This document shows positions 1-59,535 of a stretch of DNA of 64,000 nt, in pieces. Each line of letters opens with the position of its first letter. The first letter of the stretch is position 1. The DNA is from a candidate division TA06 bacterium (GTDB taxonomy: Bacteria; Edwardsbacteria; AC1; EtOH8). The stretch covers positions 147,544-211,543 of the forward strand of contig JACRJI010000014.1 of the NCBI GenBank assembly GCA_016235665.1, given 5' to 3'. Below the pieces are notes generated by a model that saw nothing but the letters and a program-made list of their open reading frames with translations, ran no database searches and was not told where the DNA came from. The position numbers and the translations under genes were made by a program.

Positions 1-243
1 GCTTTCCAGAACATTGTCTTTCTCATGGGGATTATCCTGGCCATGAACATTCCCCTGAATTGTCTCAGATTCAGTGCCGGGTTTTATACGTTTCTGTTCC
101 TGATAGCAGTGATCTGTATTACTTATCTGCCCCAGCAGATTCCGGCGTTGCTCGTTCCACGATATGGGACACAAACCAAGCTGAAATATATCTTGTATGT
201 AGCAATATTGGTCCTCTTTATTATACAACTTATCGTTGGATAG
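1..243 (+). CDS. hypothetical small membrane protein, possibly 5-prime partial (reading frame open to window edge)
   Basis: ORF 25..243 with hydrophobic segments; no in-frame stop between position 1 and the ATG, so it may continue upstream of the window. Confidence 0.25.
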   Translation, partial: AFQNIVFLMGIILAMNIPLNCLRFSAGFYTFLFLIAVICITYLPQQIPALLVPRYGTQTKLKYILYVAILVLFIIQLIVG

Positions 244-634
244 GAGCAGTATAATGAAATACATCAATGATTATTTTAAACCTATCAGCAAAGAAACGAT
301 CTTCAAAAAGCCAAAATCCGTCAGTGATCAAGGCTTTGCAAGCAAAAAAACCGTCATGAAGGAAACGAAGGACGGCATCGAACGGCACGTTGAGGAAAGC
401 ATCCTCCTTTCCGCTTGCGGTGAGGTAATCAAGGAAAGCGAGATCAGCGGACGTTGTGATGTTTGTGGCGGATACACTTGCCCAAAGCACATCTACCATT
501 GCCAGGCATGTCAAAAGACGTTATGCCTTCGGGATGTCCGGTTCTTAAAGGACAATGAAAACGAAAGCGCGTACTGCCCCGAACATTATACTATTGCTGT
601 ATATAACTATGACACCTGGACACGTCGCAAATAA
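236..634 (+). CDS. Cys-rich zinc-ribbon protein (CxxC...CxxC...CP), first gene of island operon
   Basis: C-terminal CDVCGG...CPKH...CQACQ...CPEH cysteine pairs; directly upstream of and coupled to the ATPase gene. Confidence 0.4.
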   Translation: MDRSSIMKYINDYFKPISKETIFKKPKSVSDQGFASKKTVMKETKDGIERHVEESILLSACGEVIKESEISGRCDVCGGYTCPKHIYHCQACQKTLCLRDVRFLKDNENESAYCPEHYTIAVYNYDTWTRRK

Positions 635-660
635 CGAAGCAATATAACTGGTTATTTATA

Positions 661-2358
661 ATGCTACTTTCTGAAAGAAAATCAACGTTCGATTCGGATC
701 CTTGCCTGCAGGCTGCTCTCCACATCATGGAACTGGCAAGGCAGACAGGTACAGAACGTGAGCTTTTCATCCTGCAGGCCCTAAAAGTGATCCGGGCATT
801 TCCGCAAAACCTCGGACTGATCCAGGGGTATGTCAGGAGCGTGGAGCGGAGGCTTTTGCCAAAGTTGATCAATGAAAAGTATCAAAGCCAGGTGCCGGAT
901 TCAAGGGTTTTTGGCGGGAATATCCACCTGGGAAATGTAGTTGAGAACAATGTTCCCGCCAGGATCACGACGGGACAGCTTAACCAGAACATCCTGATTT
1001 ATGGGAGGACAGGATCAGGCAAGTCGAATTTCAATATGCATGTTATCCCCCAGATTGCAGGGCTTGGGATAAAATGTGAAATATTTGATTTCAAACGGGA
1101 GTACCGGGACCTTTGGACATTACAGGATTGCCAGCCCATGATAGTACTCAATACCAGCAATGACAAATACAACCCGCTGGAACCAGTCGGGAATCCCAAG
1201 GGGTATAACCAGTTTTTCTGGGACATCTGCCAGCAGGATTTCAACATTCGCCCGGAAACTAAGCAAATGTTGATAATTTGTACCGACGAGTTGTATGCCC
1301 GTTTCGGGGTATACAACAATGGGAAATACTTTCCCACCTTATATGACCTCTATGATTACCTTAAAGAGAAGGCTGAAACGGCCAATCCCAAGATATTCAG
1401 GGGAATGGAAGTGATTCTGTCGATAATAAACCGGCTGGGCGCTATGGTTGATTGCAGTTCGGGATATGACCTCTCCGGTTTTAAAACGGTGTGCTATGAG
1501 GTGGATAACCTGAGTGAGGATTTAAGGTCCTGGATTATGAAACTGAGATTAAAAAAAAGCTACGAACAGGGTCTGAAATACAATCAACGGAATATATTGA
1601 GAAAAATTCTGGTTTTCGACGAGGCGAAGATGGTTTTTGGACAGAGCCGGATCGGGGAAGCGACCAACTATTTTAAGGATGCCATTACCCAGCAACGGGC
1701 ATTGGGTACCGGACTGCTTATTTCCGACCAGAACCCGTCGGAGTTGGCCGACTTCATCAGGAATAATGTCTATGGACAGGTCTGTTTTCATCTGGTCCAT
1801 CCTAAGGAAAGGCGGAACGCCGCACAATCTTTGGGTGGCACCGAGGACTTTGAATTGAAGATTGCGCGTTTGGCAATTCCCAACGCATATATTTCTCTGG
1901 GGCATTACCCGTACCCATTCCTGATGAGAATACCCAAAAGCAGGGTAACCTGGCATATCGGGGATGGAGAATTTGATCGTCTTATGCAGCCGGTAATATC
2001 CAGATTACAGTATATCCCCAGATACAAACCCGTTAAACCCGCTATTGTAATAACCCCAAAAGTCAACATACCGGAGAAACCAGCCAGCATTCCCAAAACA
2101 GACTCTACCGGAGATCTGTTTGAGCAATGGATAAATCTTTTAAAACATATTAAGGCGAATCCTGAAGACAATGTTTCGAAAATATACGATAAGCTGGGGT
2201 TGTCCAGAAGGAAGGGCAATTTGATCAAGGAACAGCTTTTGGAAAATTGTTTGATTGAAGAGGAGGTTGTCCATACCAAGGAGAGGAAACGGCCCCAAAA
2301 GCGACTAAAGCTCACTCTAAAGGGGGAGGAATATGTCAAAAGGCAAAGGCGGGCCTGA
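661..2358 (+). CDS. FtsK/HerA/VirB4-superfamily P-loop NTPase (DUF87-like)
   Basis: Walker A ILIYGRTGSGKS; Walker B hydrophobic run ILVFDEAKM; downstream LLISDQNPSEL sensor-like segment; 565 aa. Confidence 0.6.
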   Translation: MLLSERKSTFDSDPCLQAALHIMELARQTGTERELFILQALKVIRAFPQNLGLIQGYVRSVERRLLPKLINEKYQSQVPDSRVFGGNIHLGNVVENNVPARITTGQLNQNILIYGRTGSGKSNFNMHVIPQIAGLGIKCEIFDFKREYRDLWTLQDCQPMIVLNTSNDKYNPLEPVGNPKGYNQFFWDICQQDFNIRPETKQMLIICTDELYARFGVYNNGKYFPTLYDLYDYLKEKAETANPKIFRGMEVILSIINRLGAMVDCSSGYDLSGFKTVCYEVDNLSEDLRSWIMKLRLKKSYEQGLKYNQRNILRKILVFDEAKMVFGQSRIGEATNYFKDAITQQRALGTGLLISDQNPSELADFIRNNVYGQVCFHLVHPKERRNAAQSLGGTEDFELKIARLAIPNAYISLGHYPYPFLMRIPKSRVTWHIGDGEFDRLMQPVISRLQYIPRYKPVKPAIVITPKVNIPEKPASIPKTDSTGDLFEQWINLLKHIKANPEDNVSKIYDKLGLSRRKGNLIKEQLLENCLIEEEVVHTKERKRPQKRLKLTLKGEEYVKRQRRA

Positions 2359-2683
2359 ACACCAAAAGGCACAATGCCTTATAAGGGATTACTACCAGGC
2401 CCGGGGCATGGTGGCCGTTATAGAGGCTTTTCTTGGAAACAAGAATATAGATGTGTTGGTGCAGGATCCAGAGACTGGGCAGATCATAGCCATAGAATAC
2501 CAGACGACGATTAAACATGCTTTGGAGAATGTTCTGCTTGACCATGTTTTTTGTGACGAGGTGATTCTCGTTTCGGCCGATATCCGGGTGCTTGGGCAAA
2601 TGAAGCGGAAGATTGACGGGAACGGGGCAATTAACGGACAAAAAGTAAAATATAGGCTACTCAAGGAGTTTATTCCACAATAA
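2333..2683 (+). CDS. hypothetical 116-aa protein (possible degenerate PD-(D/E)xK-like fold)
   Basis: ORF with GGGGAGG RBS 6 nt upstream, overlaps ATPase stop by 26 nt; IDVLVQDPETGQIIAIEYQ resembles YraN-like nuclease core but is not diagnostic. Confidence 0.35.
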   Translation: MSKGKGGPEHQKAQCLIRDYYQARGMVAVIEAFLGNKNIDVLVQDPETGQIIAIEYQTTIKHALENVLLDHVFCDEVILVSADIRVLGQMKRKIDGNGAINGQKVKYRLLKEFIPQ

Positions 2684-2771
2684 TGGTAATCTGGTCAGTA
2701 GTAATAACCCGGAATAAAATATGGAATTTAACCAACGGACTAAAATCCCAAAACGAAAGGAGGTGAACAGT

Positions 2772-3512
2772 ATGCAAAGAAAAACAATATCCCTGATTGT
2801 GGCAGGCAGTGGGGTGATCAAAGACCTGGCGATTTCTCCGGAAACGACGGTCCATGACATCATCAATCAGAACGGACTATCTGGCTATGCTCTGTCCAAG
2901 GGCAACGAACAGAGTCTCAGTCAGGAGGATAACATCTTCAATTCGGTCATGGATGGCGACGAGGTCTATGCATCGCCGGAGGATGTTTCTGTAGGCAGAC
3001 AACCCCCTGCCTCCCCCTTCGGGGGGAAACCGTCCTTCCAGTTTGAAAAGATAACTGGCATCCGGCAAACGGTAACCCACTCAGGAGTGACGGAGACCCG
3101 CAAGGTGGAGGTGGTCCGGACTAGAACGTATGATAAGACCCTATTTCTCAAAAAGCGGTCAGGGCTGCCCTATTGGATGAAGGCCGGTTGGTTTCAGACA
3201 AATGATGGATACAATGGGTGGTACCGGACTAAATACGGAAGTTGGAAGGGTTATATCCATCGGGATTATCAGGATTCCTACTCGTATTTCATCATCGATC
3301 CTCCGAGTGAAGTAAAAAATGGATCCCATGGAGCTTGTTTTTCCCACCGGGGAAACGGTAAATATCAAGTGCATTTTAGTGTCAAGCCGACGGATATCGG
3401 GGATGGTATTCTAACGGTTGAGAGACTTATTAGCGAATCATTCGGTCAAAAGAACCACAAGGCACATAGAGGAGGCTTTATATCATGTTTACGAAAACTG
3501 GGGCTTTTGTGA
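2772..3512 (+). CDS. ubiquitin-like (beta-grasp) domain protein fused through an FGG motif to a ~160-aa C-terminal domain
   Basis: N-terminal KTISLIVAGSGVIKDLAISPETTVHDII...DGDEVYA matches the ThiS/MoaD/ubiquitin beta-grasp pattern; linker RQPPASPFGG then C-terminal domain; strong AAAGGAGG RBS before ATG 2772. Confidence 0.55.
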   Translation: MQRKTISLIVAGSGVIKDLAISPETTVHDIINQNGLSGYALSKGNEQSLSQEDNIFNSVMDGDEVYASPEDVSVGRQPPASPFGGKPSFQFEKITGIRQTVTHSGVTETRKVEVVRTRTYDKTLFLKKRSGLPYWMKAGWFQTNDGYNGWYRTKYGSWKGYIHRDYQDSYSYFIIDPPSEVKNGSHGACFSHRGNGKYQVHFSVKPTDIGDGILTVERLISESFGQKNHKAHRGGFISCLRKLGLL

Positions 3513-3541
3513 TGAGGTTTCAATGACAGCGGAGAAGGAAG

Positions 3542-4168
3542 ATGATTGAGCAGCAGATTGAGGCCCATATCACATTGTTAAAGGTAAAAGTAATTGCTCA
3601 CAGCGTTGTGGAGGTAAAAAACCTATGTGCTTCCATTTTAGACCTGCTGGAGCTTCACCGGATAGCGGCCAAGTATGGTTCGGTTGAGGACGAAAAAAGG
3701 ATTGTTTTTATAATTCCATCGCTTTTCCTACGGGATTGTTTAGATTACTTGAGGCAACAGGAGGAGGAATCGCTTCATTTCGTAACCGGAGTCCATATAG
3801 ATAATATTGTGATCCTTGACCGGCTTGTCAAACTGGAATTTGAAAAGCAGACTGTTGTCTTTGCCAAGGCTGATTCTACTTCGGTTAAAAATGCCTTGCT
3901 GGAACTGACGAGAAACGGTTATCGGCTTTTTGCATACTTTCATATCCATCCGGGCACCGGAGAACCAGCCACGCATCCTTCAAGTATCGATAAAAAGCTT
4001 GATGAGCTGTTGCAACGCGGAAAATATCAGGCAGTCGGTGCGATATTTAGTAGGGATGGTTACGCGCGGTTCTTCACCGACGGCAATTATGAAGTCCAAA
4101 TATACGGAAGGGGGGTGCAACAGATTGATGATAGAACTTTTAAGGTCGTTGAACCGGCCAAAACATAA
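3542..4168 (+). CDS. JAB/MPN (JAMM) metallo-isopeptidase
   Basis: JAMM-type motif FHIHPGTGEPATHPSSID (HxH...S..D); 208 aa; between Ubl and E1 genes. Confidence 0.7.
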   Translation: MIEQQIEAHITLLKVKVIAHSVVEVKNLCASILDLLELHRIAAKYGSVEDEKRIVFIIPSLFLRDCLDYLRQQEEESLHFVTGVHIDNIVILDRLVKLEFEKQTVVFAKADSTSVKNALLELTRNGYRLFAYFHIHPGTGEPATHPSSIDKKLDELLQRGKYQAVGAIFSRDGYARFFTDGNYEVQIYGRGVQQIDDRTFKVVEPAKT

Positions 4169-4187
4169 GACTTTTCATACCCCAGGC

Positions 4188-4934
4188 ATGGCCATGAGGT
4201 GTGAAGAAGACCGCAGGAATCTGACGGCCAGACAGGAAGTCGTTTTAGGTTTTGACCAGAATGTTATGAAAAGATTGTCCATATTGCAGATTGGAGCAGG
4301 TGGGCTTGGTGGAGAGATATGCCAGGGGTTGGTCCGAAAAGGCGTAGGGACCGTGAAGGTATTTGACGGGGATGTCGTCGAGCCATCAAACCTAACGCGA
4401 CAGAGGTTTTATCCAAAAGACCTTTACAGGAATAAGGCGTTGTCATTGGCTGGCAATCTTATGAAAGAGGCGATCATTAAAACTGAAATTATTGCTTATC
4501 CTTTCATGTTCCAACGGGCATTGGAGGAGGGGATGAATATGGATTGTGATATCGTGATTTGCGCCCCGGACAATGACGAAGTCCGGCGTTTTACGGCGAA
4601 GTATTTTCTCAATAAAGTGCCGGTTATATTTACGGGATTGGACCGGAAGGCAAATACCGGCTATGTTTTCATTCAGGAACCGGGCAAAGCTTGTTTCGAG
4701 TGTGCGATACCGTCTGCAAAAAGGAATAAAAGAGAACCGTGCCCGAATACTCCGGCAGTCATTGACTTGGTCAAGATCATTTCAGGTTTGGTCCTTTTTG
4801 CGGTTGATTCGACGGTAATGCATAGAAAACGAAACTGGAACTACAGACAAATATTCCTCTGCGGGTATATCCCCGAAATTATATGGACGGTTAAAAGAAG
4901 TAATAAATGTCAGATTTGCGGTACCAAATGGTAA
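4188..4934 (+). CDS. E1-like ubiquitin-activating / ThiF-MoeB family adenylyltransferase (minimal, ~249 aa)
   Basis: Rossmann ILQIGAGGLGGEICQGLVRKGVG, then FDGDVVEPSNLTRQ (E1/ThiF signature), CFEC...CQIC zinc pairs; start chosen 20 nt after JAB stop rather than the overlapping ATG 3930. Confidence 0.8.
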   Translation: MAMRCEEDRRNLTARQEVVLGFDQNVMKRLSILQIGAGGLGGEICQGLVRKGVGTVKVFDGDVVEPSNLTRQRFYPKDLYRNKALSLAGNLMKEAIIKTEIIAYPFMFQRALEEGMNMDCDIVICAPDNDEVRRFTAKYFLNKVPVIFTGLDRKANTGYVFIQEPGKACFECAIPSAKRNKREPCPNTPAVIDLVKIISGLVLFAVDSTVMHRKRNWNYRQIFLCGYIPEIIWTVKRSNKCQICGTKW

Positions 4935-5015
4935 CAGACCCCTATCGAATAAGGCGAAGTAAATTAAGGCGAGATCTAAAAACGAAGGGTTTATCGAAGC
5001 CGCAGGCTATAATAT

Positions 5016-5516
5016 ATGAAACCGCCATTAAGACAGGGAAGTGCGAATGACTTTCAGACACCAGCCCAAGCATTGCACCCGTTATACCAATATTTGAAAA
5101 AAGATTGGACAATATGGGAGTGTGCCCAGGGTAAGGGGAATATTGTCAGAGAATTACGGGCACGAGGGTGGAAAGTAATAGGCACAGATATATTAGATGG
5201 TCATGATTATTTATCTTATCTGCCGTCGAGATTCAATTGTATGATTACTAATCCTCCATATAGCATCAAGCAGCTGTTTTTAGAACGTGCATATTCTCTG
5301 CAAAAACCTTTTGCGTTTCTCTTGCCCTTGACCACATTTGAAACGAGAAAGCGACAGTATCTTTTTGAAAAATACGGGTTGGAGGTGATATTTTTCGATA
5401 AACGAATAAATTTTGAAACACCGAGCGGGAGAGGAACGGGAGCCTGGTTTGCGACGGCGTGGTTTACATGGGGTCTGAACATTGGCAAACAAATGACGTT
5501 TTGTAAATATGAATAA
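5016..5516 (+). CDS. small DNA methyltransferase, probably N6-adenine (phage Dam-like), NPPY motif
   Basis: ITNPPYS catalytic motif IV; 166 aa, size typical of phage orphan MTases. Confidence 0.6.
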   Translation: MKPPLRQGSANDFQTPAQALHPLYQYLKKDWTIWECAQGKGNIVRELRARGWKVIGTDILDGHDYLSYLPSRFNCMITNPPYSIKQLFLERAYSLQKPFAFLLPLTTFETRKRQYLFEKYGLEVIFFDKRINFETPSGRGTGAWFATAWFTWGLNIGKQMTFCKYE

Positions 5517-5733
5517 AGTGCGTACAATGGATCAACTAATTGACATAATAACCTTATCAAAACTCTTGAGCGTCAAGCCGATGACCATATATGGTTGGAT
5601 ACACGAGGGTGTAATTCCATATATCAAGCTTGGCCGGCTGGTGCGTTTCAGTGAAAAGGAAGTTCAAGCCTGGCTTAACAAGAAGAAACGAGAGGGACAA
5701 CCAGTAAAAGCAACGGATATAGATTTAACTTAA
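5509..5733 (+). CDS. AlpA/Xis-family helix-turn-helix excisionase-like DNA-binding protein
   Basis: LLSVKPMTIYGWIHEGVIPYIKLGRLVRFSEKEVQAWL matches excisionase/AlpA HTH pattern; immediately upstream of the integrase. Confidence 0.7.
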   Translation: MNKVRTMDQLIDIITLSKLLSVKPMTIYGWIHEGVIPYIKLGRLVRFSEKEVQAWLNKKKREGQPVKATDIDLT

Positions 5734-5802
5734 CTTGACATGGCAATAGGGTATAGGTTAACCCCAAAAGGTAATAATTCATTCATAAAGGAGGGAAGTG
5801 AA

Positions 5803-6861
5803 ATGCGTATATATAAAAGAAATGAGATTTGGTATTTGGACTACAATTATAAAGGCAAGCGATATCGTAAACGCGTCGGTAAATCCCAGAAAATGGCAGA
5901 ACTGGCACTTAAGAACATTGAGGTGAAAATTGTTAAAAAAGAGCATCTCGGCGTACAGGACGACAAAAAGATACTATTCGAGGATTTTACGACAAAATAT
6001 CTCGACTACGCCAAAGTAAACAAGTCCCCTAAATCATATTACCTCAACATAGGTAATATGAAAGCCATGCTGCCGTTTTTCAAAGGGAAATATCTATCCG
6101 AGATCACCCCTCAGGACATCGAGAGATATAAAGCAGAACGATCTTCGACGGTAAAACCAGCTACCCTTAACAGGGATCTTGCCTGCCTGCGGCATATGCT
6201 CAATAAAGCCATCGAGTGGGGATACCAACAGGTGAATCCGATGAAAGGGGTAAAACTCCTGAAGGAGCCTCCGGGGAGGTTGCGTTTCTTGTCCGAGGAG
6301 GAAATCAAAATACTACTGCATGAGTTGCCAGCAGGCTCAAAACTCATCGTACTGGTCGCGATGTACACCGGGATGAGAAGGTCTGAAATCCTCAATCTCA
6401 ATTGGAGCAATGTGGATTTGAAGAACAGGATCCTTGTCGTCGAGAAAACCAAGACCAATGAGCGGAGAATCATCCCTATCAACGATGGTTTGTATTCTCA
6501 GCTACATGAACTGTCCACAAGGAAAAAGAGCGAATTGGTATTTGCCGAATGTAGGATCAATTTACGGAGGAACTTCACAGATGCTTTGAAGAGGGCAAAT
6601 ATCAGAAATTTCAGATTTCACGACCTTCGCCACACCTTCGCGAGCTATCTTGTAATGAGCGGAGCCAGTATCAAAGTGGTCCAGCAGCTTCTCGGCCATA
6701 AGGATTTGAAAATGACGATGAGATATTCGCACCTTTCAAACGAACACCTCCAGGAAGCTGTTGGAAAGTTAAATTACACAAAACAGGATAAGATAGAACC
6801 GCAAACAGTAAGAGAAACCAGGAGCCGATATAAGTACAATCATATTATGTCCCTAAGGTAA
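5803..6861 (+). CDS. int: tyrosine site-specific integrase (phage integrase family)
   Basis: C-terminal HDLRHTFASYLV...LLGHKDLKMTMRYSHL catalytic box; N-terminal arm-type WYLDY..GKRYRKR; RBS AAGGAGGG before ATG 5803. Confidence 0.9.
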   Translation: MRIYKRNEIWYLDYNYKGKRYRKRVGKSQKMAELALKNIEVKIVKKEHLGVQDDKKILFEDFTTKYLDYAKVNKSPKSYYLNIGNMKAMLPFFKGKYLSEITPQDIERYKAERSSTVKPATLNRDLACLRHMLNKAIEWGYQQVNPMKGVKLLKEPPGRLRFLSEEEIKILLHELPAGSKLIVLVAMYTGMRRSEILNLNWSNVDLKNRILVVEKTKTNERRIIPINDGLYSQLHELSTRKKSELVFAECRINLRRNFTDALKRANIRNFRFHDLRHTFASYLVMSGASIKVVQQLLGHKDLKMTMRYSHLSNEHLQEAVGKLNYTKQDKIEPQTVRETRSRYKYNHIMSLR

Positions 6862-6865
6862 CAAA

Positions 6866-6894
6866 AATAGCCCAGCTTTTTAAGCTGGGCTATT
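6866..6894 (+). terminator. perfect 11-bp inverted repeat hairpin AATAGCCCAGC/GCTGGGCTATT after int
   Basis: seen in sequence; not followed by a T-run; the shared stem motif recurs at 7694. Confidence 0.4.
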
Positions 6895-6928
6895 CTACTC
6901 ACAACGACAATAACCTAAGGAGGATAAA

Positions 6929-7150
6929 ATGTTAATTTATCATTTATTTGCACTGATATTCATTGCAGTGATGGCAAGAAAATATTCTGCCAAGGAGATC
7001 TTGCGGGCAGCAATTAAGGCGGGAATCATTGCATATATAATCATGGGTCTGGTATTTGCTCATGGAATTATCAGAAAAATAGCCTTCCGTTCAGTTATTC
7101 ACCTGCAACAAAATAATAACAATTCCTACAACAATAACCCCCTTATCTAA
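6929..7150 (+). CDS. small membrane protein, hypothetical
   Basis: strong RBS TAAGGAGG; two hydrophobic helices; Asn-rich tail. Confidence 0.4.
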   Translation: MLIYHLFALIFIAVMARKYSAKEILRAAIKAGIIAYIIMGLVFAHGIIRKIAFRSVIHLQQNNNNSYNNNPLI

Positions 7151-7170
7151 ATTAAAGGAGGTACACCATA

Positions 7171-7599
7171 ATGAGTAACATGGCTAAAATCTACATTCCC
7201 GAGGATGTCCTCTATTATCTGAAACTTGTTGGTTTCGATAAATTTGTATATTCGAACATTGACAAAGTGGTTTTCCGGACTGATCTTTCAACTGGTGGTT
7301 TAGCGTTTATTGGGAGCCGTCCCCGGCTGGTGCACATTAAATTACGTTCCCCACCCGTCAATAATACAGCATGGAAACAATTAACCGCCATATCCAATGC
7401 AACAACTTATGTACATGAAGCCGCACATCATTACAGATGGGAGAATTATCATGATCGTGGAGAGTATGCACCAAAATGTTATGAATGGCGGTTCTTACGG
7501 GCATTGCAACCTCTGATCGAACCTCAAGGAAAAATCCGAATTGTTATTCACAGAACGTGGTGGGGTGGCTTTAAGGGGTGCAGTTTATTAATCGTTTGA
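7171..7599 (+). CDS. hypothetical protein with HExxH zincin-like motif (VHEAAHH)
   Basis: RBS AAAGGAGG; HEAAH motif; 142 aa. Confidence 0.4.
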   Translation: MSNMAKIYIPEDVLYYLKLVGFDKFVYSNIDKVVFRTDLSTGGLAFIGSRPRLVHIKLRSPPVNNTAWKQLTAISNATTYVHEAAHHYRWENYHDRGEYAPKCYEWRFLRALQPLIEPQGKIRIVIHRTWWGGFKGCSLLIV

Positions 7600-7693
7600 A
7601 TGCTCGGGTCCCTGATGGAATAATAAATACATTTTAGTGCATTTGAATGGGCATTTACAAAAAGCCGTTAGGAAGTTAAGCTTTGCTAAAGAG

Positions 7694-7727
7694 AATAGCC
7701 CAGCATAGTAGCCGGGCTATTCTTTTC
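7694..7727 (+). terminator. hairpin AATAGCCC-loop-GGGCTATT followed by T-rich tract
   Basis: 8-bp stem sharing the AATAGCCC motif with hairpin at 6866; CTTTTCT follows. Confidence 0.4.
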
Positions 7728-7729
7728 TG

Positions 7730-7758
7730 TTGACAAGGAGTATATCGGATGTTACTAT
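7730..7758 (+). promoter_or_regulatory. sigma70-like promoter TTGACA-17 bp-TACTAT upstream of the caspase-like/cyclase gene pair
   Basis: TTGACA at 7730, 17-bp spacer, TACTAT at 7753. Confidence 0.35.
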
Positions 7759-7790
7759 TATGTGAGTAAAAAAATCTAGTATTAATTGCA

Positions 7791-8462
7791 GTGATTTATA
7801 TGAGAAAAAGCATAAAACATAAGTATTCATCTCTACTTATCATTGAATGCGATTCAAATAAACTTCAGAGACAAAACATTGATATAGCAAGTAAGATTAA
7901 CGACCTTTTTCAAAAATTACCATTTTGTAAGCACAAATACATTCGTACGTTTGAGAAATCAGATTTATGCTTAAAAATAAATGAAATCTCTAAAGAACAT
8001 TACGATATTATTGTTTTAACAGGCCATACTTTTACTGATGGAGGGGGTAGGCCTGTCCGTTTCGATTTTGCAAGTGACTATAAACCAGAATTATCAGTCT
8101 TACCTTCTTTTTTAAATACATTTAAACCTAAATGTTTGATTATGGCTTCGTGTAAGGGGTCTCATTTTATTACCACGGATGTGATGTTTAATGGGATGCC
8201 AACACTAAAAGAAATATATGGCTCTCCGGTTTTGACAAATTCAAAACAACTTCAAATATTATTACTATTGATACCATATATTATATTCAGCGATAAATAT
8301 GATGACGGCATTTTATTTTTAAGCAATATTGTTAATTTTGTACAATCTGGAGGATATATTGTTAGGCATACACGTGCGGAATTTATAAATAAAAGACCGA
8401 TTAAATATATTCAACAAGAAATGTATGATTCTCTAAAAAGTATTTTAAGTAATAGTCATTAA
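7791..8462 (+). CDS. caspase-like (peptidase C14/CHAT-type) protein
   Basis: IIVLTGHTFTDGGG (His-Gly) and KPKCLIMASCKGS (compare caspase KPKLFFIQACRG) about 42 aa apart, matching caspase His/Cys dyad spacing. Confidence 0.5.
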   Translation: MIYMRKSIKHKYSSLLIIECDSNKLQRQNIDIASKINDLFQKLPFCKHKYIRTFEKSDLCLKINEISKEHYDIIVLTGHTFTDGGGRPVRFDFASDYKPELSVLPSFLNTFKPKCLIMASCKGSHFITTDVMFNGMPTLKEIYGSPVLTNSKQLQILLLLIPYIIFSDKYDDGILFLSNIVNFVQSGGYIVRHTRAEFINKRPIKYIQQEMYDSLKSILSNSH

Positions 8463-8478
8463 TAAAGGCACAACACAT

Positions 8479-9267
8479 ATGGCACATTATAGATATAATT
8501 CTCTAGAAGATTATTTAATATCTCAGCCCCTAACGGTTGATGGTGTTTTGGATGATGGATGGGGTGCCTCGTTTCCAGTTAAAGGGCGTGAAGTAGAGGC
8601 AACAATATTATTTTCTGACATTTCGTCATTCACTCGACGCACTCTTGATTTAACCCCTACGGAAACATTAATATTTGTCAACAATTTTTTCTCATGGATT
8701 ACAGCTGAAGCTTTAAGGGATAAACCAGCGATTATTGACAAGTATGTCGGTGATGAGATGATGATTGTATTTTCAAATGAGTTTGGGTCTAAAGATCATT
8801 TTGTCGATGCTATTCAAACCGCAAGGTGGATGGGAGAATATGACATACTTGATTTCCGTCCTCACATAGGAATAGCAAGTGGCCCCGTTATTATTGGCTA
8901 TGTTGGTACACCTGTTAAATATAATTGTTCTGTATTTGGTCATACCGTCGCATTAGCGAAGAGGTGTGCAGGGGTGAAAATGAGCGATACTAGTCCATAT
9001 ATGGTTTTCCCGACACGATCATGGCAGGGTCGTTCGTTTGAAGAAATAATTCCACTTGTGAAAATGAAGAAATCGGAAAGTGAATTTGTTGAATTACCAC
9101 AAAGCTGGAAATTAGCCCCAAGTCGTAAAGTCAGCTTAAACAATATTGGTGATGTTGACGTAATGGGCATTATAAATATGTTATTAACAGAACCATCACA
9201 GTCCGCAGTGGAAAGAGCAAAAGAATCGTTAACTATTCTTAAAGCCAATGGCAGTTGCAGACAATAA
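8479..9267 (+). CDS. stand-alone class III nucleotidyl cyclase (adenylyl/guanylyl-cyclase catalytic domain)
   Basis: ATILFSDISSFT (metal Asp), KYVGDEMMIVF (second Asp), RPHIGIASGPVIIGYVG, YNCSVFGHTVALAKR (Asn/Arg transition-state residues); only ~45-aa N-terminal extension. Confidence 0.7.
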   Translation: MAHYRYNSLEDYLISQPLTVDGVLDDGWGASFPVKGREVEATILFSDISSFTRRTLDLTPTETLIFVNNFFSWITAEALRDKPAIIDKYVGDEMMIVFSNEFGSKDHFVDAIQTARWMGEYDILDFRPHIGIASGPVIIGYVGTPVKYNCSVFGHTVALAKRCAGVKMSDTSPYMVFPTRSWQGRSFEEIIPLVKMKKSESEFVELPQSWKLAPSRKVSLNNIGDVDVMGIINMLLTEPSQSAVERAKESLTILKANGSCRQ

Positions 9268-9336
9268 TGATTATCAATTAGACACTACTGCATCGTTAGG
9301 CACAAATCCGACACAACAGCATTTTATCAATAATAG

Positions 9337-9365
9337 TTGACTTATAACCTATTGTGATGTAAAAT
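9337..9365 (+). promoter_or_regulatory. sigma70-like promoter TTGACT-17 bp-TAAAAT
   Basis: TTGACT at 9337, 17-bp spacer, TAAAAT at 9360; drives the tRNA-like fragment transcript. Confidence 0.4.
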
Positions 9366-9413
9366 AGTCCAAGTGCGTTGAAATAATAGTGGCAATCTCT
9401 TAATCAGCGGGTC

Positions 9414-9441
9414 AAAGGTTCGAGTCCTTTATGGCGCACCA
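9414..9441 (+). other. tRNA 3-prime-end fragment (T-arm AAAGG-TTCGAGT-CCTTT, acceptor 3-prime strand, discriminator, CCA); candidate att-site remnant
   Basis: GGTTCGAGTCC T-loop and ...ATGGCGCACCA end; no complementary 5-prime acceptor strand within 90 nt upstream, so not a complete tRNA. Confidence 0.45.
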
Positions 9442-9450
9442 GTTTTTAGC

Positions 9451-9477
9451 AGCACAGTTAAAATACTGTGCTTTTTG
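9451..9477 (+). terminator. intrinsic terminator AGCACAGT-loop-ACTGTGCT plus TTTTTGTTT
   Basis: 8-bp perfect stem followed by T-run. Confidence 0.6.
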
Positions 9478-9494
9478 TTTGGGGTCCGCAGGCC

Positions 9495-9523
9495 TTGACA
9501 AAGGGTGTTAATATTGGTATCTT
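9495..9523 (+). promoter_or_regulatory. sigma70-like promoter TTGACA-17 bp-TATCTT upstream of ssrA leader
   Basis: TTGACA 9495, 17-bp spacer, TATCTT 9518. Confidence 0.35.
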
Positions 9524-9528
9524 TATAC

Positions 9529-9745
9529 AAGCGATCAAATAAAAGGGGGGCGTCCTTCGGAAACAAAGCAAGAGGGACTACCTCAGTATGACGAAGCAAA
9601 CAAATAAAAGGGGGGCGACCCCGCATCAGGCATAATACAAGCAAACAATTCCTGCGGGGCAGGGAAGGCATCAAATAAAAGGGGGCGACACTTCGACAAG
9701 TTGGGCAAGGGGCGTTTCTCAGTGCAAGGAAGCAATCAAATATTA
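9529..9745 (+). repeat. three degenerate tandem copies (~67-nt period) of the ssrA 5-prime end motif CAAATAAAAGGGGGGCGAC in the ssrA leader
   Basis: copies at ~9538, ~9602 and ~9687 share ATCAAATAAAAGGGGG(G)CG(AC) with the authentic tmRNA start at 9746; the third copy also shares ACTTCGACAAG with GTTTCGACGG. Confidence 0.6.
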
Positions 9746-10102
9746 GGGGGCGACAGGTTTCGACGGTAAAGAAAGGGTTTAAGTGGCATGCCGAGAAAGT
9801 CAGAGGGCTCGTTAAAATACTGGCAACGTCATAATTGACACTTACAACTACGCTCTGGCAGCTTAATTTTAGCTGCCATGCCGCTGCAGGTCCCCGCCTA
9901 TCGGATCTGCAAACGGCATCGCAAAGATGGGCTGGTCCGAGACGCCCGGCCCGGGCATTTCGGATGAGATCTTAGGGCTGCTCTCTTAAGGGATCGTGTT
10001 TGTGCGAGACTTTTAGGGAAAAGACCAAAACACAAAACAAGCATGTAGAGGCTTAGGTTCTTACCTTATCGGACGTGGGTTCAATTCCCACCGCCTCCAC
10101 CA
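9746..10102 (+). ncRNA. ssrA: tmRNA (SsrA), one-piece
   Basis: 5-prime GGGGGCGACAGGTTTCGACGG; 3-prime GGACGTGGGTTCAATTCCCACCGCCTCCACCA; acceptor GGGGGCG/CGCCUCC pairs; tag ORF ending ...AAC TAC GCT CTG GCA GCT TAA (NYALAA*). Confidence 0.9.
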
Positions 10103-10355
10103 TTATTCCTCCGTGCCGGGCAGTAGTCCGCCGAAGCTTTAGCGAAGGCGGGCACCACACCAAAATCCAGAGCTTGGCAATAGCCCCGCCAACGGCGGGG
10201 CACCATCTTGGATCAACAGCCGTTCCGCAACAGCGGGACGGCTGTTATTTGTTTGAGCCTCTTGACAAAATGCTCCGGCAGGATTATCCTATATCAGCGG
10301 GCGGTAGTTCTCAAAGGGTTCCATCAAGGACAAACCATAACTAGGAGGTTCTGCC

Positions 10356-12678: not shown

Positions 12679-13287
12679 TTGGACAAACATATACAATTAA
12701 ATCATAAACAAAAATTACTGATACCAAACGTTATGTTAGCTCCACTTTTTACGGTAAAGAAGATCAAAAACAAAGGCCAGGGGCTTTTCGCCAGGGAATT
12801 CATCCCCCGGGGAACCATCGTGTTCTTTGAATGCCATAACTGCAAAGTTACGCCCAAGGCCAGTTTTCAAAAACTATTCCCCGCCCAAAAGGAAAAACTG
12901 CTGTTCCATGCATACACCGTCAAGAACGGCTCGGTGGTGATGCCCTGCGGCGACTCCAAATACATGAACCATTGCTGCGATTCCAACATCCTGGACACCG
13001 GGAAGGGATACGACATCGTGGTCCGGGACATCAAGAAAGGCGAAGAGGCCACCTACGACTACCGGGTCTTTTATGACCAGGACTGGGGATTCCAGTGCGC
13101 CTGCGGCTCCAAGAACTGCTGCGGCACTTTCCGCTGCCGGCACCCGCTGCCCCGGGGAGTGCGGGCCTTATGGGACAAGAAGATCAAGCCGGCCATAAAG
13201 CTGATCAACAAAGTACCTCAGCCGTTAAAGAACGAACTGATCTTGCATAATTCAAAACATAAAAGGCTGTTTAGCAACATGTCATGA
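12679..13287 (+). CDS. SET-domain protein (putative lysine methyltransferase)
   Basis: NHCCDSN (NHSCxPN-like), EEATYDY, post-SET CACGSKNCCG cysteines. Confidence 0.7.
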   Translation: MDKHIQLNHKQKLLIPNVMLAPLFTVKKIKNKGQGLFAREFIPRGTIVFFECHNCKVTPKASFQKLFPAQKEKLLFHAYTVKNGSVVMPCGDSKYMNHCCDSNILDTGKGYDIVVRDIKKGEEATYDYRVFYDQDWGFQCACGSKNCCGTFRCRHPLPRGVRALWDKKIKPAIKLINKVPQPLKNELILHNSKHKRLFSNMS

Positions 13288-13505
13288 TCATAAACCTTAA
13301 GATCGTCCCCAATGCCAAGGCCGAGAAGCTGGTAAAAGAAGCCGGCCGGTACAAGGTCTATGTCACTGCCCCGGCGGTGGACGGCAAGGCCAATCAAAAA
13401 CTGGTGGAGTTCCTGGCCGGGCATTTCAAGGTCAGAAAAACAGCCGTCACCATCCTCCGGGGCCAGACCTCGCGTCTGAAATTGGTGGAGATAAAAACCG
13501 AATGA
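13284..13505 (+). CDS. DUF167 (YggU-like) family protein
   Basis: KIVPNAKAEKLV...YKVYVTAPAVDGKANQKLVEFLAGHFKV...ILRGQTSRLKLVEI matches YggU/DUF167 pattern. Confidence 0.65.
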   Translation: MIINLKIVPNAKAEKLVKEAGRYKVYVTAPAVDGKANQKLVEFLAGHFKVRKTAVTILRGQTSRLKLVEIKTE

Positions 13506-14032
13506 AGACCATCAAATATTCCCGTCTTATCCTGATCTGCCTGACCCTGCTGGACGCAGGCTTCATCCTGCTCAGCGGGTTCATCATGCAAAGCCCGGTC
13601 CTGCTGATCAAACTTCTGGGTATCGTTGTCCTGTTTGCCGCCACCATGGGCGCGGCCCTGATCAGCCGGGAGTGGGTACGGCCGTCACAGGTCCGGGTCG
13701 AGGATGACCAGGTCATAGTTCAATGGAACAACTGGGAACTGCGGGGCCGGCTGGCGGAAAGGTCGTTCTCAGAACAAAAGCCCAAAATGCTCAGGCTCAA
13801 AGTCCTGGAATACAAGATCACCCTGTACCCGGTGGGGCCGATGTTCATCCTGGCCGGGCTTCTGGCGGAGCCCATCAGACAGCGGCTGCCCCGGCTGCTG
13901 GATAAGACGTTTTTTTATAACCGCGATAAACTGGTCTCTCAATTATCTCCAATCCCGGGAACCGCCGGGGTAATGCTGGAAATTCCGGTGATTTTACTGG
14001 GAAAAAGAAAGGTGAAAAAATGGCTTGGCTGA
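13502..14032 (+). CDS. hypothetical membrane protein
   Basis: two N-terminal TM helices; coupled to neighbours by 4-nt overlaps. Confidence 0.4.
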   Translation: MKTIKYSRLILICLTLLDAGFILLSGFIMQSPVLLIKLLGIVVLFAATMGAALISREWVRPSQVRVEDDQVIVQWNNWELRGRLAERSFSEQKPKMLRLKVLEYKITLYPVGPMFILAGLLAEPIRQRLPRLLDKTFFYNRDKLVSQLSPIPGTAGVMLEIPVILLGKRKVKKWLG

Positions 14033-15375
14033 AGAACATCTTCCAACGGGCCAAACCCCTGGCCTCAGGGCTGTATCATTACCGGGGACAAGAGGGCGAC
14101 CGGTTCTTCCGGCTGCACCTGCGGATAGAGCCCGACGCCCGGGGGGTGCTGGTGATCAACGCCTCCAAGATCCTGCACCTGAACCAGACCGCGGCCGAGC
14201 TGGCCAAGCACATCATAGAAGGCGACGACGCCAAAACAGCGGCGGAGCAGATGGTAAAGCGCTACCGGGGCGTGAAATCTTCGGTTCTGGAGAACGATTT
14301 CAACCAGCTCAAGCAGAAGATCTTCGCCCTGGCCTCCACCGACGACGTCTGCCCGGTGACCTATCTGGACATCAACCGGATCGAGCCCTTCGAGACCCCG
14401 GTCAGCGCGCCCTACCGGATGGACCTGGCCCTGACCTACAAATGCAACGACGCCTGCGGCCACTGCTACCTGCCCAAGGACCGGATGCCCCAGGAACTCA
14501 CCGCCCAGCAGTGGAAGCAGATCCTGTCGAAATTGTGGGATACCGGGATCCCCCACGTCTGCTTTACCGGGGGCGAGGCCACCCTAAGGCCGGACCTGGT
14601 GGACCTGATCGCCTATGCCGAGGAGACCGGCCTGGTGACCGGCCTTTTGACCAACGGCCGGAAACTGAAGGACAAAAAGCTGGTCAAGCAGATGACCGAA
14701 GCCGGCCTGGACCATTTCCAGATCACTTTGGAATCGCACCTGGCCTCGGTCCACGACAAGATGGTGGGCAGCAAGGGGGCCTTTGAGGACACGGTCAAGG
14801 GAATAAAGAACGCCGTGGCCTCGCCGGTCTACACCATCACCAACACCACCCTGACCAGGCTCAACGCCAAGGGCATGGAAAAGACCATGGAGTTCCTTAA
14901 AAAGCTGGGGATCACCACCATGGCCTGCAACGGGCTGATCTATTCCGGGCAGGGAGCCTCTTGCGGTCTGGGCTTCACCGAAGCGGAGCTGGTGCCGCTG
15001 ATGGAGAGGATCCGGGAAAAGGCCCGGCAGCTGGACCTCAAACTGATCTGGTACACGCCCACCCAGTACTGCCAGCTGGACCCGGTGAACCTGGAGCTGG
15101 GTGTCAAGACCTGCACCGCCGCCCGCTACAACATGTGCGTGGAGCCGGACGGCTCGGTCATCCCCTGCCAGAGCTATTTCGCCCCGCTGGGGAACATCCT
15201 GACCGACAGGTGGGAGAAGATCTGGAACGCCAAGCCGGCGGTGGATCTCCGCAACAAAACCTATTTGATGGACAAATGCAAGGGGTGCCAGAAACTGCCG
15301 CTGTGCGGGGGCGGGTGTCCGATATACAATACCCAGAATGAAGTGATATGCGTGGACAGCAAGTCTAACGCATAA
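14020..15375 (+). CDS. radical SAM protein with C-terminal SPASM-like Cys cluster
   Basis: CNDACGHC (CxxxCxxC) motif; C-terminal CQSYFAPLGNI...CKGCQKLPLCGGGCP cysteines. Confidence 0.75.
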   Translation: MAWLKNIFQRAKPLASGLYHYRGQEGDRFFRLHLRIEPDARGVLVINASKILHLNQTAAELAKHIIEGDDAKTAAEQMVKRYRGVKSSVLENDFNQLKQKIFALASTDDVCPVTYLDINRIEPFETPVSAPYRMDLALTYKCNDACGHCYLPKDRMPQELTAQQWKQILSKLWDTGIPHVCFTGGEATLRPDLVDLIAYAEETGLVTGLLTNGRKLKDKKLVKQMTEAGLDHFQITLESHLASVHDKMVGSKGAFEDTVKGIKNAVASPVYTITNTTLTRLNAKGMEKTMEFLKKLGITTMACNGLIYSGQGASCGLGFTEAELVPLMERIREKARQLDLKLIWYTPTQYCQLDPVNLELGVKTCTAARYNMCVEPDGSVIPCQSYFAPLGNILTDRWEKIWNAKPAVDLRNKTYLMDKCKGCQKLPLCGGGCPIYNTQNEVICVDSKSNA

Positions 15376-34929: not shown

Positions 34930-35060
34930 ATCATCAATGCCACAGAGAACAACCCGCATGTTACAGAGGCTTTTGTCAATGCCGCATGGACCTTTCCGCA
35001 TACCACAGAAATGATCGTCAATGTCACAGAGAGGAAACCGCATAATGCAGAACAGGCACA
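34930..35060 (+). repeat. three tandem ~42-bp direct repeats (TCAATGYCACAGAGA..AAACCGCAT..) in the ~1-kb leader upstream of the RHS gene
   Basis: seen in sequence; antisense translation shows repeated LCxIDD..CG units. Confidence 0.5.
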
Positions 35061-35217
35061 TATGATGTATCGAAGACACAGTGCTTCTGAAACCGCTTGC
35101 TCTCATTAATCACACGGTCACCCATACCAAAAAGGCAGTTGTGCTGCAGATGGAATTGTTGAAAATATTAACATGGGGAACTAAATAACAAAATCATATA
35201 AAGGAGTAAATTACAAA

Positions 35218-39603: not shown

Positions 39604-39615
39604 GAAAGGTTTAAA

Positions 39616-40047
39616 ATGAAGATATTAAAAATTACATTTTTAACGGTTGTTTTAACGATCACCGCTTTCATCATCATTAGGCAACCTTGGCAAAAAAATG
39701 TAATGGTTTTATCTCAACCATTACTTCAAAACAATCAAACAATTGAATTATGGGAAAAACCATATCATAATATCTTTAGCATGGAGTATACAACATGGTT
39801 TGTATTTAATAATAACGGAAATAGGACTTGGCATTTGATTGATGACAAATATATTTCCTTTGGCACAGTTTCGTTATTCGTATCAAACAACAACGATACA
39901 ATTAGAGTTGAAACAACTGGAGCAGCTACACCTCTTCATTTAATTGCACAGTATAGTTTATCTGATAAAAATTTTGTTGCAAGAAGTGAAGAAACTGTTA
40001 GTAATAAAGCAGGATGGAAATTGCTTAGATCATTAAAAATAAGATAA
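39616..40047 (+). CDS. putative cognate immunity protein (TM/secreted, 143 aa)
   Basis: immediately downstream of toxin tip; AT-rich like the tip; followed by hairpin CTGCCCCGCC-TAAT-GGCGGGGCAG. Confidence 0.5.
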   Translation: MKILKITFLTVVLTITAFIIIRQPWQKNVMVLSQPLLQNNQTIELWEKPYHNIFSMEYTTWFVFNNNGNRTWHLIDDKYISFGTVSLFVSNNNDTIRVETTGAATPLHLIAQYSLSDKNFVARSEETVSNKAGWKLLRSLKIR

Positions 40048-40100
40048 ATAGATGTCTCAACTGCCCCGCCTAATGGCGGGGCAGTGATGGTACTGCTGAA

Positions 40101-41366: not shown

Positions 41367-41386
41367 TTAATTGAAAGGGAAAGAAA

Positions 41387-41890
41387 ATGCATAAAAATAT
41401 TCTAATAGCGATAGTGGCAATATTGTTATCTTGCACAAAATATGGTATATCAAGTAATGATAAAAATATTATTTACGGTTTAGTTATAAGTGATCAAAAA
41501 AGTATTCATGCACAAGAGATGCCTACGTTTAATATAAAAAAAATATATGTTAATATTCTCGGCTGTGACCCAAACAATGAATTGGTTGAATATTTAAAGC
41601 AAAATAATGCGATTGATATAGTGCCTGCATCGAAGAGCATTAATGTTTACCACGACCCAGTGAAGTTTGATTATTATAAAAACCCAATTTCAGTGAGGAG
41701 TAAAAGCAATAACGAAAATGGCATTATATTTGAGATAAAAAGTATTAAAAAGGAACCTAAAACAGGGATAATAACTGTTAACTTATTCTATTATGCGGGG
41801 CCTTTATTCGCGGGTAATTATGAGTATTTAATAGATAAAAACGATAAAGAATGGTATATTGTAAAAAGAAGCATTGGCGAAATATCATAA
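41387..41890 (+). CDS. putative immunity lipoprotein for orphan cassette 1
   Basis: signal/lipobox-like N-terminus; AT-rich; followed by perfect palindrome CCAGACCCGCCCTTAAGGGGCGGGTCTGG. Confidence 0.45.
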   Translation: MHKNILIAIVAILLSCTKYGISSNDKNIIYGLVISDQKSIHAQEMPTFNIKKIYVNILGCDPNNELVEYLKQNNAIDIVPASKSINVYHDPVKFDYYKNPISVRSKSNNENGIIFEIKSIKKEPKTGIITVNLFYYAGPLFAGNYEYLIDKNDKEWYIVKRSIGEIS

Positions 41891-41938
41891 TGATGTGAAC
41901 CAGACCCGCCCTTAAGGGGCGGGTCTGGTTCTTACAGC

Positions 41939-42739: not shown

Positions 42740-42747
42740 AAAGGAGA

Positions 42748-43173
42748 ATGAAAATGTTGATCAACCTTAAAGCACTATCTCTTGTCGAAAAAATAGTTGG
42801 TGCTATTGCTATTATTGTTAGCGGCTATTATATCCTTCATGGGTCCTCTGCTTGGATTCTTTTACATTTGACCTCTAACATACAAGGATTTTTCCCCAAA
42901 ATGACATTCGTGGTAGAGACTATCGTCAATTTTTATTTAATACCACTTTTAATTTTAGTTACTGGTCTTTTTTATGTGAATGGGAAAATTAATATATTAG
43001 CTATGTGGATTTCGATTATACTTTGTCTGTCAATCGTATTTATGATAGTTGTACAGCATGGCAATATCAAACCATATTTGCTTATGCTTGTAATTAATGG
43101 TTTGTTCTTAATTCTTTATATTGTTCATAAACAAGTAGAGTCAAAGAAAAAAGAATCTGCCTGTTGTGTATAA
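42748..43173 (+). CDS. putative immunity membrane protein for orphan cassette 2
   Basis: four hydrophobic helices; AT-rich; followed by hairpin AGCCCCGCC-GATT-GGCGGGGCT. Confidence 0.45.
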   Translation: MKMLINLKALSLVEKIVGAIAIIVSGYYILHGSSAWILLHLTSNIQGFFPKMTFVVETIVNFYLIPLLILVTGLFYVNGKINILAMWISIILCLSIVFMIVVQHGNIKPYLLMLVINGLFLILYIVHKQVESKKKESACCV

Positions 43174-59511: not shown

Positions 59512-59535
59512 AATAAACGAAGATCAATAAAGGAG

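Follow-up and report, generated by a model that had tools for sequence, protein, structure and literature searches.

Tandem modules that open with copies of the ssrA 5' junction form the tmRNA leader in a TA06 subclade

Why should the gene for transfer-messenger RNA (tmRNA), ssrA, be preceded by further, degenerate copies of its own beginning, and do these copies have a role? The question is raised by a stretch of 64,000 nucleotides (nt) from a candidate division TA06 bacterium (contig JACRJI010000014.1, GenBank assembly GCA_016235665.1), which we call the window. For tmRNA, which is nearly universal, maturation is seen as a simple matter of one RNase P cut that removes the leader. An earlier note, made from the letters of the window alone, had reported three extra copies of the ssrA 5' end in the leader. 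These copies are real. The 222 bp from the ssrA promoter to the mature tmRNA 5' end comprise three modules of 65, 71 and 65 nt, and the view that the leader is an array of tandem modules opening with copies of the ssrA junction is well supported.

The array and the gene that it precedes are laid out as follows (positions in the window).

9495-9523, + strand: ssrA promoter, sigma-70-type (TTGACA, 17-nt spacer, TG-n-TATCTT; 10/12 hexamer matches)
9524-9544, + strand: leader start, TATACAAGCGATCAAATAAAA, the A-rich 'tail' half of junction 1
9529-9555, + strand: junction motif copy 1 (repeat family D1)
9545-9609, + strand: module 1, type A, 65 nt (GGGGGGCG, UCCUUCGG, then ACCUCAG and an A-rich tail)
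9594-9620, + strand: junction motif copy 2 (repeat family D1, 89%)
9610-9680, + strand: module 2, type B, 71 nt (GGGGGGCGA, a CCCCGCA/27-nt loop/UGCGGGG hairpin, tail CAGGGAAGGCAUCAAAUAAAA)
9665-9691, + strand: junction motif copy 3 (repeat families D1 and D2)
9681-9745, + strand: module 3, type C, 65 nt (GGGGGCGACACUUCGAC, GGGGCGUUUCUCAG, tail AAGCAAUCAAAUAUUA)
9730-9756, + strand: junction motif copy 4, the true junction, spanning the mature tmRNA 5' end
9746-10102, + strand: tmRNA gene (ssrA), one-piece and canonical (ARAGORN; Rfam RF00023)
10215-10246, + strand: terminator-like hairpin downstream of ssrA (14 pairs, then a T-run)

Repeat finding identified a 27-nt direct-repeat family, AAGCnATCAAATAwwAGGGGG(G)CGAC, with four copies in the leader. 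They are spaced 65, 71 and 65 nt from start to start, and copies 2 to 4 are 89, 74 and 67% identical to copy 1. The pattern CAAATAWWAGGGGGCG, with at most two mismatches, has four matches in the 64 kb, all in the ssrA leader. Shuffled sequences gave 0.37 matches on average, and none of 100 reached four. When a profile of the junction was run against 270 kb (the window and the loci described below), matches were confined to ssrA leaders, with the sole exception of a weak match on the tmRNA start of another phylum. Copies of ATCAAATAAAAGGGGG begin at 9534, 9599 and 9670, and the true one at 9735. The earlier note had placed its third copy at ~9687, about 17 nt too far to the right. It had also remarked that this copy retains ACTTCGACAAG (9690-9700), opposite GTTTCGACGG of the tmRNA, and this holds. 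Tandem Repeats Finder reported no array in the leader, because the units are too divergent outside the motif.

Each module opens with a copy of the last ~16 A-rich bases of the leader, followed by that of the acceptor 5' strand, GGGGG(G)CG, and ends in 25-45 type-specific nt. A D-loop analogue, UUCG(A/G), follows the acceptor-like strand in two of the three window modules. The start of module 3, GGGGGCGACACUUCGAC, is the most tmRNA-like, and its tail, AAGCAAUCAAAUAUUA, is the immediate 5' leader of the mature tmRNA. RNase P probably cuts the true junction between 9745 and 9746.

The tmRNA gene itself is ordinary in its make-up. It matches RF00023 over the full length (model positions 1-374) with 182.6 bits, against a gathering score of 47, and has the acceptor stem, T-arm, pseudoknots, tag frame and encoded CCA of that family. 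ARAGORN gives its tag peptide as DTYNYALAA. The promoter that the note had proposed (TTGACA-17-TATCTT) was found again by a signal scan, and transcription is predicted to start near 9530, 7 nt past the -10 element. Counted from this predicted start, the leader is ~216 nt long in the window and 81-423 nt in relatives. The scan found no promoter-like or terminator-like sites on the + strand within the leader. Internal promoters ahead of each G-run were considered, and none passed the scan; the best by eye (TTCTCA-16-AAATAT, 7/12) would start transcription inside a G-run. Neither strand of the leader has a conserved open reading frame (ORF), and the lengths of the units are not divisible by three. 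An 81-amino-acid ORF on the minus strand (9429-9674) is not kept in relatives and was rejected as coding. Thus, in the absence of a conserved ORF and of internal promoters or terminators, the array is best read as the 5' leader of pre-tmRNA.

Relatives were gathered by scanning genomes for the tmRNA 5' pattern, by a metagenome scan and by look-ups of the neighbouring proteins. The resulting set consists of the window and seven further distinct genomes (L007, L009, L011, L014, L015, L016 and L030). All eight genomes of this TA06 subclade carry the array between the same promoter and the first base of tmRNA, with one to six modules, and none has zero. The promoter hexamers and the extended -10 element are kept in all seven relatives, even though the spacer has diverged in L014 and L030. 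The same 21 nt (16 in L011) directly follow the -10 element in every relative. Modules, in order towards the tmRNA, are as follows.

L009: A-B-D-C-C'-B' (6)
L014: C''-B-C'-C-C (5)
Window: A-B-C (3)
L011: A'-A-B (3)
L015: A-D-C (3)
L030: x-D (2)
L007: C (1)
L016: B' (1)

Six independent assemblies of the L011 population (L011, L023, L024 and L026-L028) are identical over 654 nt, and the array is therefore not an assembly artefact there. Relatives might have shown the likeness of the copies to be of no significance, as the note allowed; they show the opposite, with repeats that are significant and conserved. Eight genomes from other phyla, in which the first 20 nt of tmRNA (GGGGGCGAyn...) are near-identical, have no copies upstream. 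Other loci with homologues of DUF885 or of the sigma factor (L017-L021, L029 and L031-L033) either have no ssrA there or lie on contigs that end earlier.

We distinguish module types A, B, B', C, C' and D, with A' and C'' as further designations in the orders above. No type is universal to all genomes. Modules of the same type are 83-100% identical across genomes, whereas neighbours within a genome are 58-79% identical. The exception is the fourth and fifth modules of L014, both type C and 98% identical, a recent duplicate. As same-type matches between genomes exceed matches between neighbours, the types are old paralogues that predate the species splits. Concerted evolution or gene conversion was rejected as the cause of conservation, given that paralogues within one genome stay distinct. 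Differences in number appear to arise mainly by loss of whole modules and occasionally by gain. Recombination or slippage between junction copies, including the true one, would fit this pattern. The tmRNA takes its positions -1 to -20 from the tail of the final module, and the type of that module differs between genomes: D in L030, B in L011, B' in L009 and L016, and C in the window, L007, L014 and L015. The junction has two variants, AUAAAA|GGGGGG and AUAUUA|GGGGG, and each of them is found at true sites.

The copies plausibly originated by tandem duplication of ssrA from about -20 to +45, a proposal that rests mainly on the 65-nt unit length. This agrees with the earlier suggestion of repeated partial duplication of the ssrA 5' end. 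Types A and C co-align over their whole length, and they align with the tmRNA up to +21 (GGGGGCGAC..UUCGAC).

Are the modules kept by selection? As neutral yardsticks we used the four-fold degenerate sites of the adjacent sigma gene and of DUF885, together with 250 nt downstream of ssrA, all as identities to the window. Four-fold sites of the sigma gene are 70-75% identical in L011, L014 and L015 and 60% in L030; those of DUF885 are 83% identical in L016, 63% in L014 and 54% in L015. The 250 nt downstream of ssrA are 57-64% identical. Type B modules are 96-99% identical, with 0-2 differences in the 44 nt of the interior, and window module 2 matches type B of L009, L011 and L014 at 96-99%, versus 63-83% at four-fold sites. 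Type C modules are 88-93% identical (window module 3 versus type C of L014 and L015, 88-89%). The junction itself is near-invariant in all copies. By these comparisons the junction and type B are clearly under constraint, and type C probably so. Window module 1 (type A) has its best cross-genome match, 83%, in the second module of L011.

The tmRNA is 96-98% identical among L009, L011, L014, L015 and L016 and 86% identical in L030. In the first five genomes this is so even though the neighbouring DUF885 proteins are 54-89% identical and four-fold sites 54-83%. The identity of the tmRNA may reflect either unusually tight conservation or recombinational spread of the tRNA-Lys-ssrA segment.

As to what the array does, the reading we favour, at a probability of about one half, is that the modules act in cis at the RNA level, as a processing or folding leader of pre-tmRNA built of RNase P junction mimics. 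Transcription from the single promoter would carry the whole array into the 5' leader of pre-tmRNA, and RNase P would discard it by cutting at the last junction (9745/9746). Every module would present an RNase-P-like junction (an unstructured A-rich leader, then a G-run), and most would be able to pair the G-run of their pseudo-acceptor with a downstream YYCUC, forming an imperfect hairpin. The leader may then be cut away module by module. Alternatively, the extra 5' strands may be kept from competing for the single 3' acceptor strand, CGCCUCCACCA. Either option would tune the speed and correctness of tmRNA 5'-end formation, with module number as an evolvable tuning parameter. Bacterial RNase P is able to cut hairpin substrates that have no T-loop, such as pre-SRP (signal recognition particle) RNA and phage C4 RNA, and leader structure modulates its cleavage rates (PMC10731613).

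Several features of the modules bear on this reading, and on the earlier note's suggestion that the copies may be decoy RNase P sites. The junction context of A-rich leader followed by G-run is copied faithfully. In types A and C', the G-run and the next bases are predicted to pair with a downstream GRGGG..CGUUCUC in a 12-13 bp hairpin, which runs from the second G to just before an unpaired A. In module 1 the G-run and UCCUUC would pair with GAGGGAC and CCUC, with a minimum free energy (MFE) of -16.8 and z = -3.2 (z-scores compare the MFE with dinucleotide shuffles). This module and the second module of L011, both intact type A, reach z = -3.2 and -3.9, respectively, and type C' modules -1.6 to -2.2. 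When one common register was applied to all type A and C modules whose G-run is intact, 9-13 of 13 positions paired (11 of 13 in window modules 1 and 3), compared to 6-9 when the partner strand was slid. In a MAFFT alignment 96.6% of the consensus cells pair, compared to 48-81% when slid. Two substitutions private to window module 3, both A to G, each create a Watson-Crick pair in this register. Type B has a distinct and conserved 7-bp stem (CCCCGCA/UGCGGGG) around a loop of 26-27 nt that differs between B and B', and this stem is rivalled by an alternative GGGG-GCGA-CCCC hairpin. The earlier note had asked whether the units fold like tRNA. A G-run hairpin is predicted in some modules, but no T-arm, anticodon arm or RCCA is present.

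A permissive Rfam search of 9250-9800 found no family for the modules and matched tmRNA at the true 5' end only. The other matches were a sub-threshold one to SpF41 on a chimeric tRNA-Lys remnant (described below) and a weak terminator-like one on the minus strand. The modules are not tmRNA genes or pseudogenes, as they have no T-arm, 3' acceptor strand, CCA or tag frame. They are, from their sequences, tmRNA 5'-end mimics rather than truncated genes with both ends. Further ideas at the RNA level were tried and rejected. A search for duplexes between modules and mature tmRNA gave only duplexes with unrealistically long loops. By sequence inspection, the spacing of canonical G-quadruplexes is absent, and the best resemblance to a boxA-like antitermination element is ~7/12.

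A number of results weigh against a role in processing or folding. The distinct genomes number only eight, and all are metagenome-assembled genomes or metagenome contigs. Similarity between modules and tmRNA past +21 is not significant (p = 0.18-0.43). Type A is 77-84% identical between genomes, marginally above neutral, and type D 65-75%, barely above neutral and with a 30-nt insertion in L015; these two types seem to be weakly constrained or unconstrained. Structural support is uneven. The first modules of L009, L015 and L011, assigned to type A, fold no better than shuffles (z -0.7 to +1.3), and neither do the commonest type C modules, including window module 3 (z >= 0); type B reaches only about -1.3. 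Compensatory double changes were found at no base pair of the hairpin, and the RNAalifold consensus energy is only -3.4 kcal/mol. The modules end the helix with AG(G/U)(A/G) (AGGA, AGUG, AGUA) instead of the RCCA of RNase P substrates. For all upstream G-runs, pairing to the single 3' acceptor strand could be as strong as that of the true G-run (-13.6 kcal/mol), and their local partners are weaker (-8.1 or -3.4 versus -13.6 kcal/mol), and thus the extra G-runs would not be securely sequestered.

We compared the processing or folding reading with four others, in the order neutral scars, trans-acting small RNAs, a DNA-level array and integration scars. The best placed of these, which we nonetheless consider unlikely, is that the modules are neutral scars of ssrA 5'-end duplications, tolerated since RNase P removes everything upstream of the last junction. 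The free copy number of one to six would fit such scars, as would the retention of different modules in different genomes with no type common to all. So would the near-neutral rate of type D and the only slightly slower rate of type A, the absent covariation and the recent duplicate in L014. What scars fail to explain is an interior of type B that is 95-100% identical, and a junction that is near-invariant, where four-fold sites are 54-75% and flanks 57-64% identical. Nor does concerted evolution account for this conservation, as orthologues are more alike than neighbours. Finally, none of the eight genomes is without a module.

A doubtful alternative, in our view, is that the leader is a polycistron of small RNAs. 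In this case an endonuclease (RNase P) would cut at every junction and release one to six trans-acting RNAs of ~65 nt, which might titrate a factor that recognises the 5' end or the tRNA-like domain of tmRNA (SmpB, AlaRS or RNase P), or pair with targets via the conserved loop of type B. The distinct, old and conserved types, notably type B with its 27-nt loop, agree with this, the exact junction context opens every module, and hairpin-type RNase P substrates exist. However, small RNAs with targets in trans are hard to reconcile with the lack of any type present in all genomes, the absence of RCCA and the weak support for structure, and no module copy occurs outside an ssrA leader. A CsrB-like sponge is not indicated, as GGA motifs are neither above a rough composition estimate nor located in loops.

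More improbable again is an array that works as DNA, in which the 27-bp junction copies bind a regulator or nucleoid protein that controls ssrA, for example as a roadblock. In its favour, the discrete 27 bp are the most conserved part and form direct repeats just downstream of the promoter. Yet the motif has no dyad symmetry, its variable spacing of 61-75 bp is unlike that of known direct-repeat operators or iterons, and the one to six sites have no fixed distance to the promoter. The motif is moreover ssrA's own RNA-processing junction, and the interior of type B is conserved too. Thus, the transcript rather than the duplex is indicated.

The last alternative involves the region directly upstream of the locus, which is an integrative island. 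Two features mark the boundary between island and ssrA.

9397-9441, + strand: displaced 3' half of tRNA-Lys(CTT), from the anticodon loop to CCA; right end of the island, outside the array
9451-9479, + strand: native tRNA-Lys terminator, kept in relatives, which parts the tRNA-Lys transcript from the ssrA promoter

GC content is 35-46% from window position 1 to ~9400, versus 55-60% downstream of ssrA. A tyrosine integrase (5740-6861; PF00589, E = 4e-37) and an HTH_17 excisionase-like protein (5509-5733) are encoded. The 45 nt at 9397-9441, joined on their left to island DNA, are identical to the 3' end of the intact tRNA-Lys in L009, L011, L014, L015 and L016, and ARAGORN calls no tRNA there. 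In these five genomes and in L030, the sigma-70 gene and ssrA are separated by a complete tRNA-Lys(CTT) gene that has a promoter and a terminator of its own. L022, a contig of the same sample on which the sigma gene lies, ends exactly in the tRNA-Lys anticodon loop. Window 1-9441 therefore shows an integrase, a displaced fragment and an intact tRNA gene (tDNA) in relatives, which together identify an integrative island; its regenerated tRNA-Lys end lies outside the window. By these comparisons the island is inserted in the tRNA-Lys anticodon loop and is unrelated to the ssrA copies. The anticodon loop is a common sublocation for island insertion in tDNAs (PMC4383910).

The earlier note had offered serial integration and excision at ssrA as a cause of the repeats, and an integrase-bearing island does lie directly upstream. 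Of the tDNA islands mapped, about 4% (159/3919) have a displaced fragment from the 5' side, and in tandem islands each fragment is parted from the tDNA by an island with its own integrase (PMC4383910). That the copies are integration or excision scars, or att remnants of elements targeting the ssrA 5' end, is nevertheless very improbable, because the island sits in tRNA-Lys and not in ssrA, relatives with an intact tRNA-Lys and no island (L009, L011, L014, L015, L016 and L030) keep the array, copies that start 65-71 nt apart have between them only 38-44 nt with nothing encoded, let alone an integrase, the sequences between motifs are conserved across genomes, and the junction motif has no matches in viral contigs.

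The island is at least 11 kb long, with its left end beyond the start of the window. Its defence-like cargo includes a HerA/mad8-like ATPase, an E1-E2/ThiF-like protein and a Pycsar-like (PycC) cyclase; apart from the integrase and HTH_17 genes, those noted in the island are at 661-2358, 3930-4934 and 8479-9267. At the island end (window 9337-9479), a strong promoter-like site (TTGACT-17-TAAAAT) supplied by the island reads into the 3' half of tRNA-Lys and the native terminator. The predicted product is a chimeric RNA of ~110 nt that resembles a tRNA in having an acceptor-like stem, T-arm and CCA. This remnant scores 29.5 bits against the Streptococcus small RNA SpF41, below the gathering score of 52. 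The same arrangement of promoter and tRNA-Lys remnant is kept at the island end in L007 (2480-2620).

Logan contigs L001, L002 and L022 (SRR12113407, same sample) have three break points, which lie 2 nt beyond the tRNA-Lys fragment (~9443), within the T-arm of tmRNA (10075) and within the anticodon loop of tRNA-Lys. The breaks suggest that strains differ, with populations that have the island and others that do not, and the ssrA 3' end may hold another element or variant. In one relative, L025 (4006-6864), tRNA-Lys is followed by an ISL3 transposase and defence-like genes (CTD10, MC6/MC7, DUF2326) instead of ssrA. In this clade, the region of tRNA-Lys and ssrA seems to be a hot spot for insertions.

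Elsewhere in the window, 12679-15375 encodes a SET-domain protein, a small PF1765-like protein, a 176-amino-acid protein and a radical SAM/SPASM enzyme with a weak PqqD-like N-terminus. This conserved gene string, downstream of ssrA, keeps its synteny in L018, L019 and L020. It is a possible cluster for peptide modification (similar to those for ribosomally synthesized and post-translationally modified peptides, RiPPs). Patches of low GC content (0.33-0.44, versus a background of ~0.55-0.60) at 35001-37000, 39001-43000 and 58001-60000 may be additional horizontally acquired segments.

The TA06 lineage keeps a modular, copy-number-variable leader of 5'-end mimics, part of which is as conserved as tmRNA. 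If the modules are processing or folding devices, they would provide a natural system for studying how RNase P chooses among competing identical 5' strands, and how a long-range acceptor stem, with strands 350 nt apart, forms correctly during transcription. If they are instead released as small RNAs, this would be a new way to co-express regulators with the ribosome-rescue RNA, and module gain and loss would tune rescue capacity or a linked regulon. In either case, finders of tmRNA and tDNA fragments should not take such 5' copies for island scars.

How does the array compare to known systems? Known variations of ssrA are, to our knowledge, two-piece permuted genes, intron-containing genes and fragments generated by islands, none of which is like it. 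Islander-type tDNA fragments are also partial gene copies near an intact gene, and a genuine case lies 300 nt upstream (9397-9441). However, an island of kilobase scale that carries an integrase lies between such fragments and the gene, and 96% of the fragments derive from the 3' part (PMC4383910), whereas the ssrA copies are 5' fragments 65 nt apart that are kept in island-free relatives. Polycistronic tRNA operons, 4.5S RNA and C4 RNA share with the array repeated units, a G at +1 after a single-stranded leader and, in some modules, a predicted helix of 12-13 bp from the G-run on, stable only in types A and C'. Unlike tRNA operons, the TA06 units have no T-arm, anticodon arm or RCCA, and their helix is imperfect and without covariation.

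Repeat-unit regulatory RNAs such as CsrB and RsmZ resemble the predicted transcript of the array in having tandem degenerate units of tens of nt on one non-coding RNA, with a unit number that varies among relatives. In the array, by contrast, the conserved element is the tmRNA junction and not a GGA loop, and the units are fused to ssrA instead of making up a small-RNA gene of their own. The idea of a CsrA sponge was rejected, with 0-3 GGA per module versus ~2.5 expected per 65 nt (a rough composition estimate and not a computed shuffle); predicted stems contain many of the GGA motifs, and the motif is missing from one type D module. A short repeat (27 nt) with 'spacers' of 38-44 nt recalls the arrays of clustered regularly interspaced short palindromic repeats (CRISPR). 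The note was right to set this likeness aside: identity among the repeats is only 67-89%, the 'spacers' are homologues of one another and 83-100% conserved between genomes, and the last repeat is the start of a functional gene.

The closest comparison is with the pre-tmRNA leaders of E. coli and other bacteria. Here, as there, the leader lies upstream of a mature GGGG... 5' end and of a canonical tRNA-like domain, and the last TA06 junction is in the unstructured A/U-rich context expected of an RNase P site. The E. coli leader is only a few nt long, unlike the 81-423 nt of the TA06 leader with its one to six repeated junction mimics, and we know of no other pre-tmRNA leader built from repeated copies of the tmRNA start. 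Our search of full-text literature found no description of repeated tmRNA 5'-end copies in an ssrA leader, and PMC10731613 gives no length for pre-tmRNA leaders. The array thus seems to be a leader design that has not been described before, so far limited to this TA06 subclade, in which a tmRNA of canonical structure is preceded by a variable series of copies of its own 5' junction.

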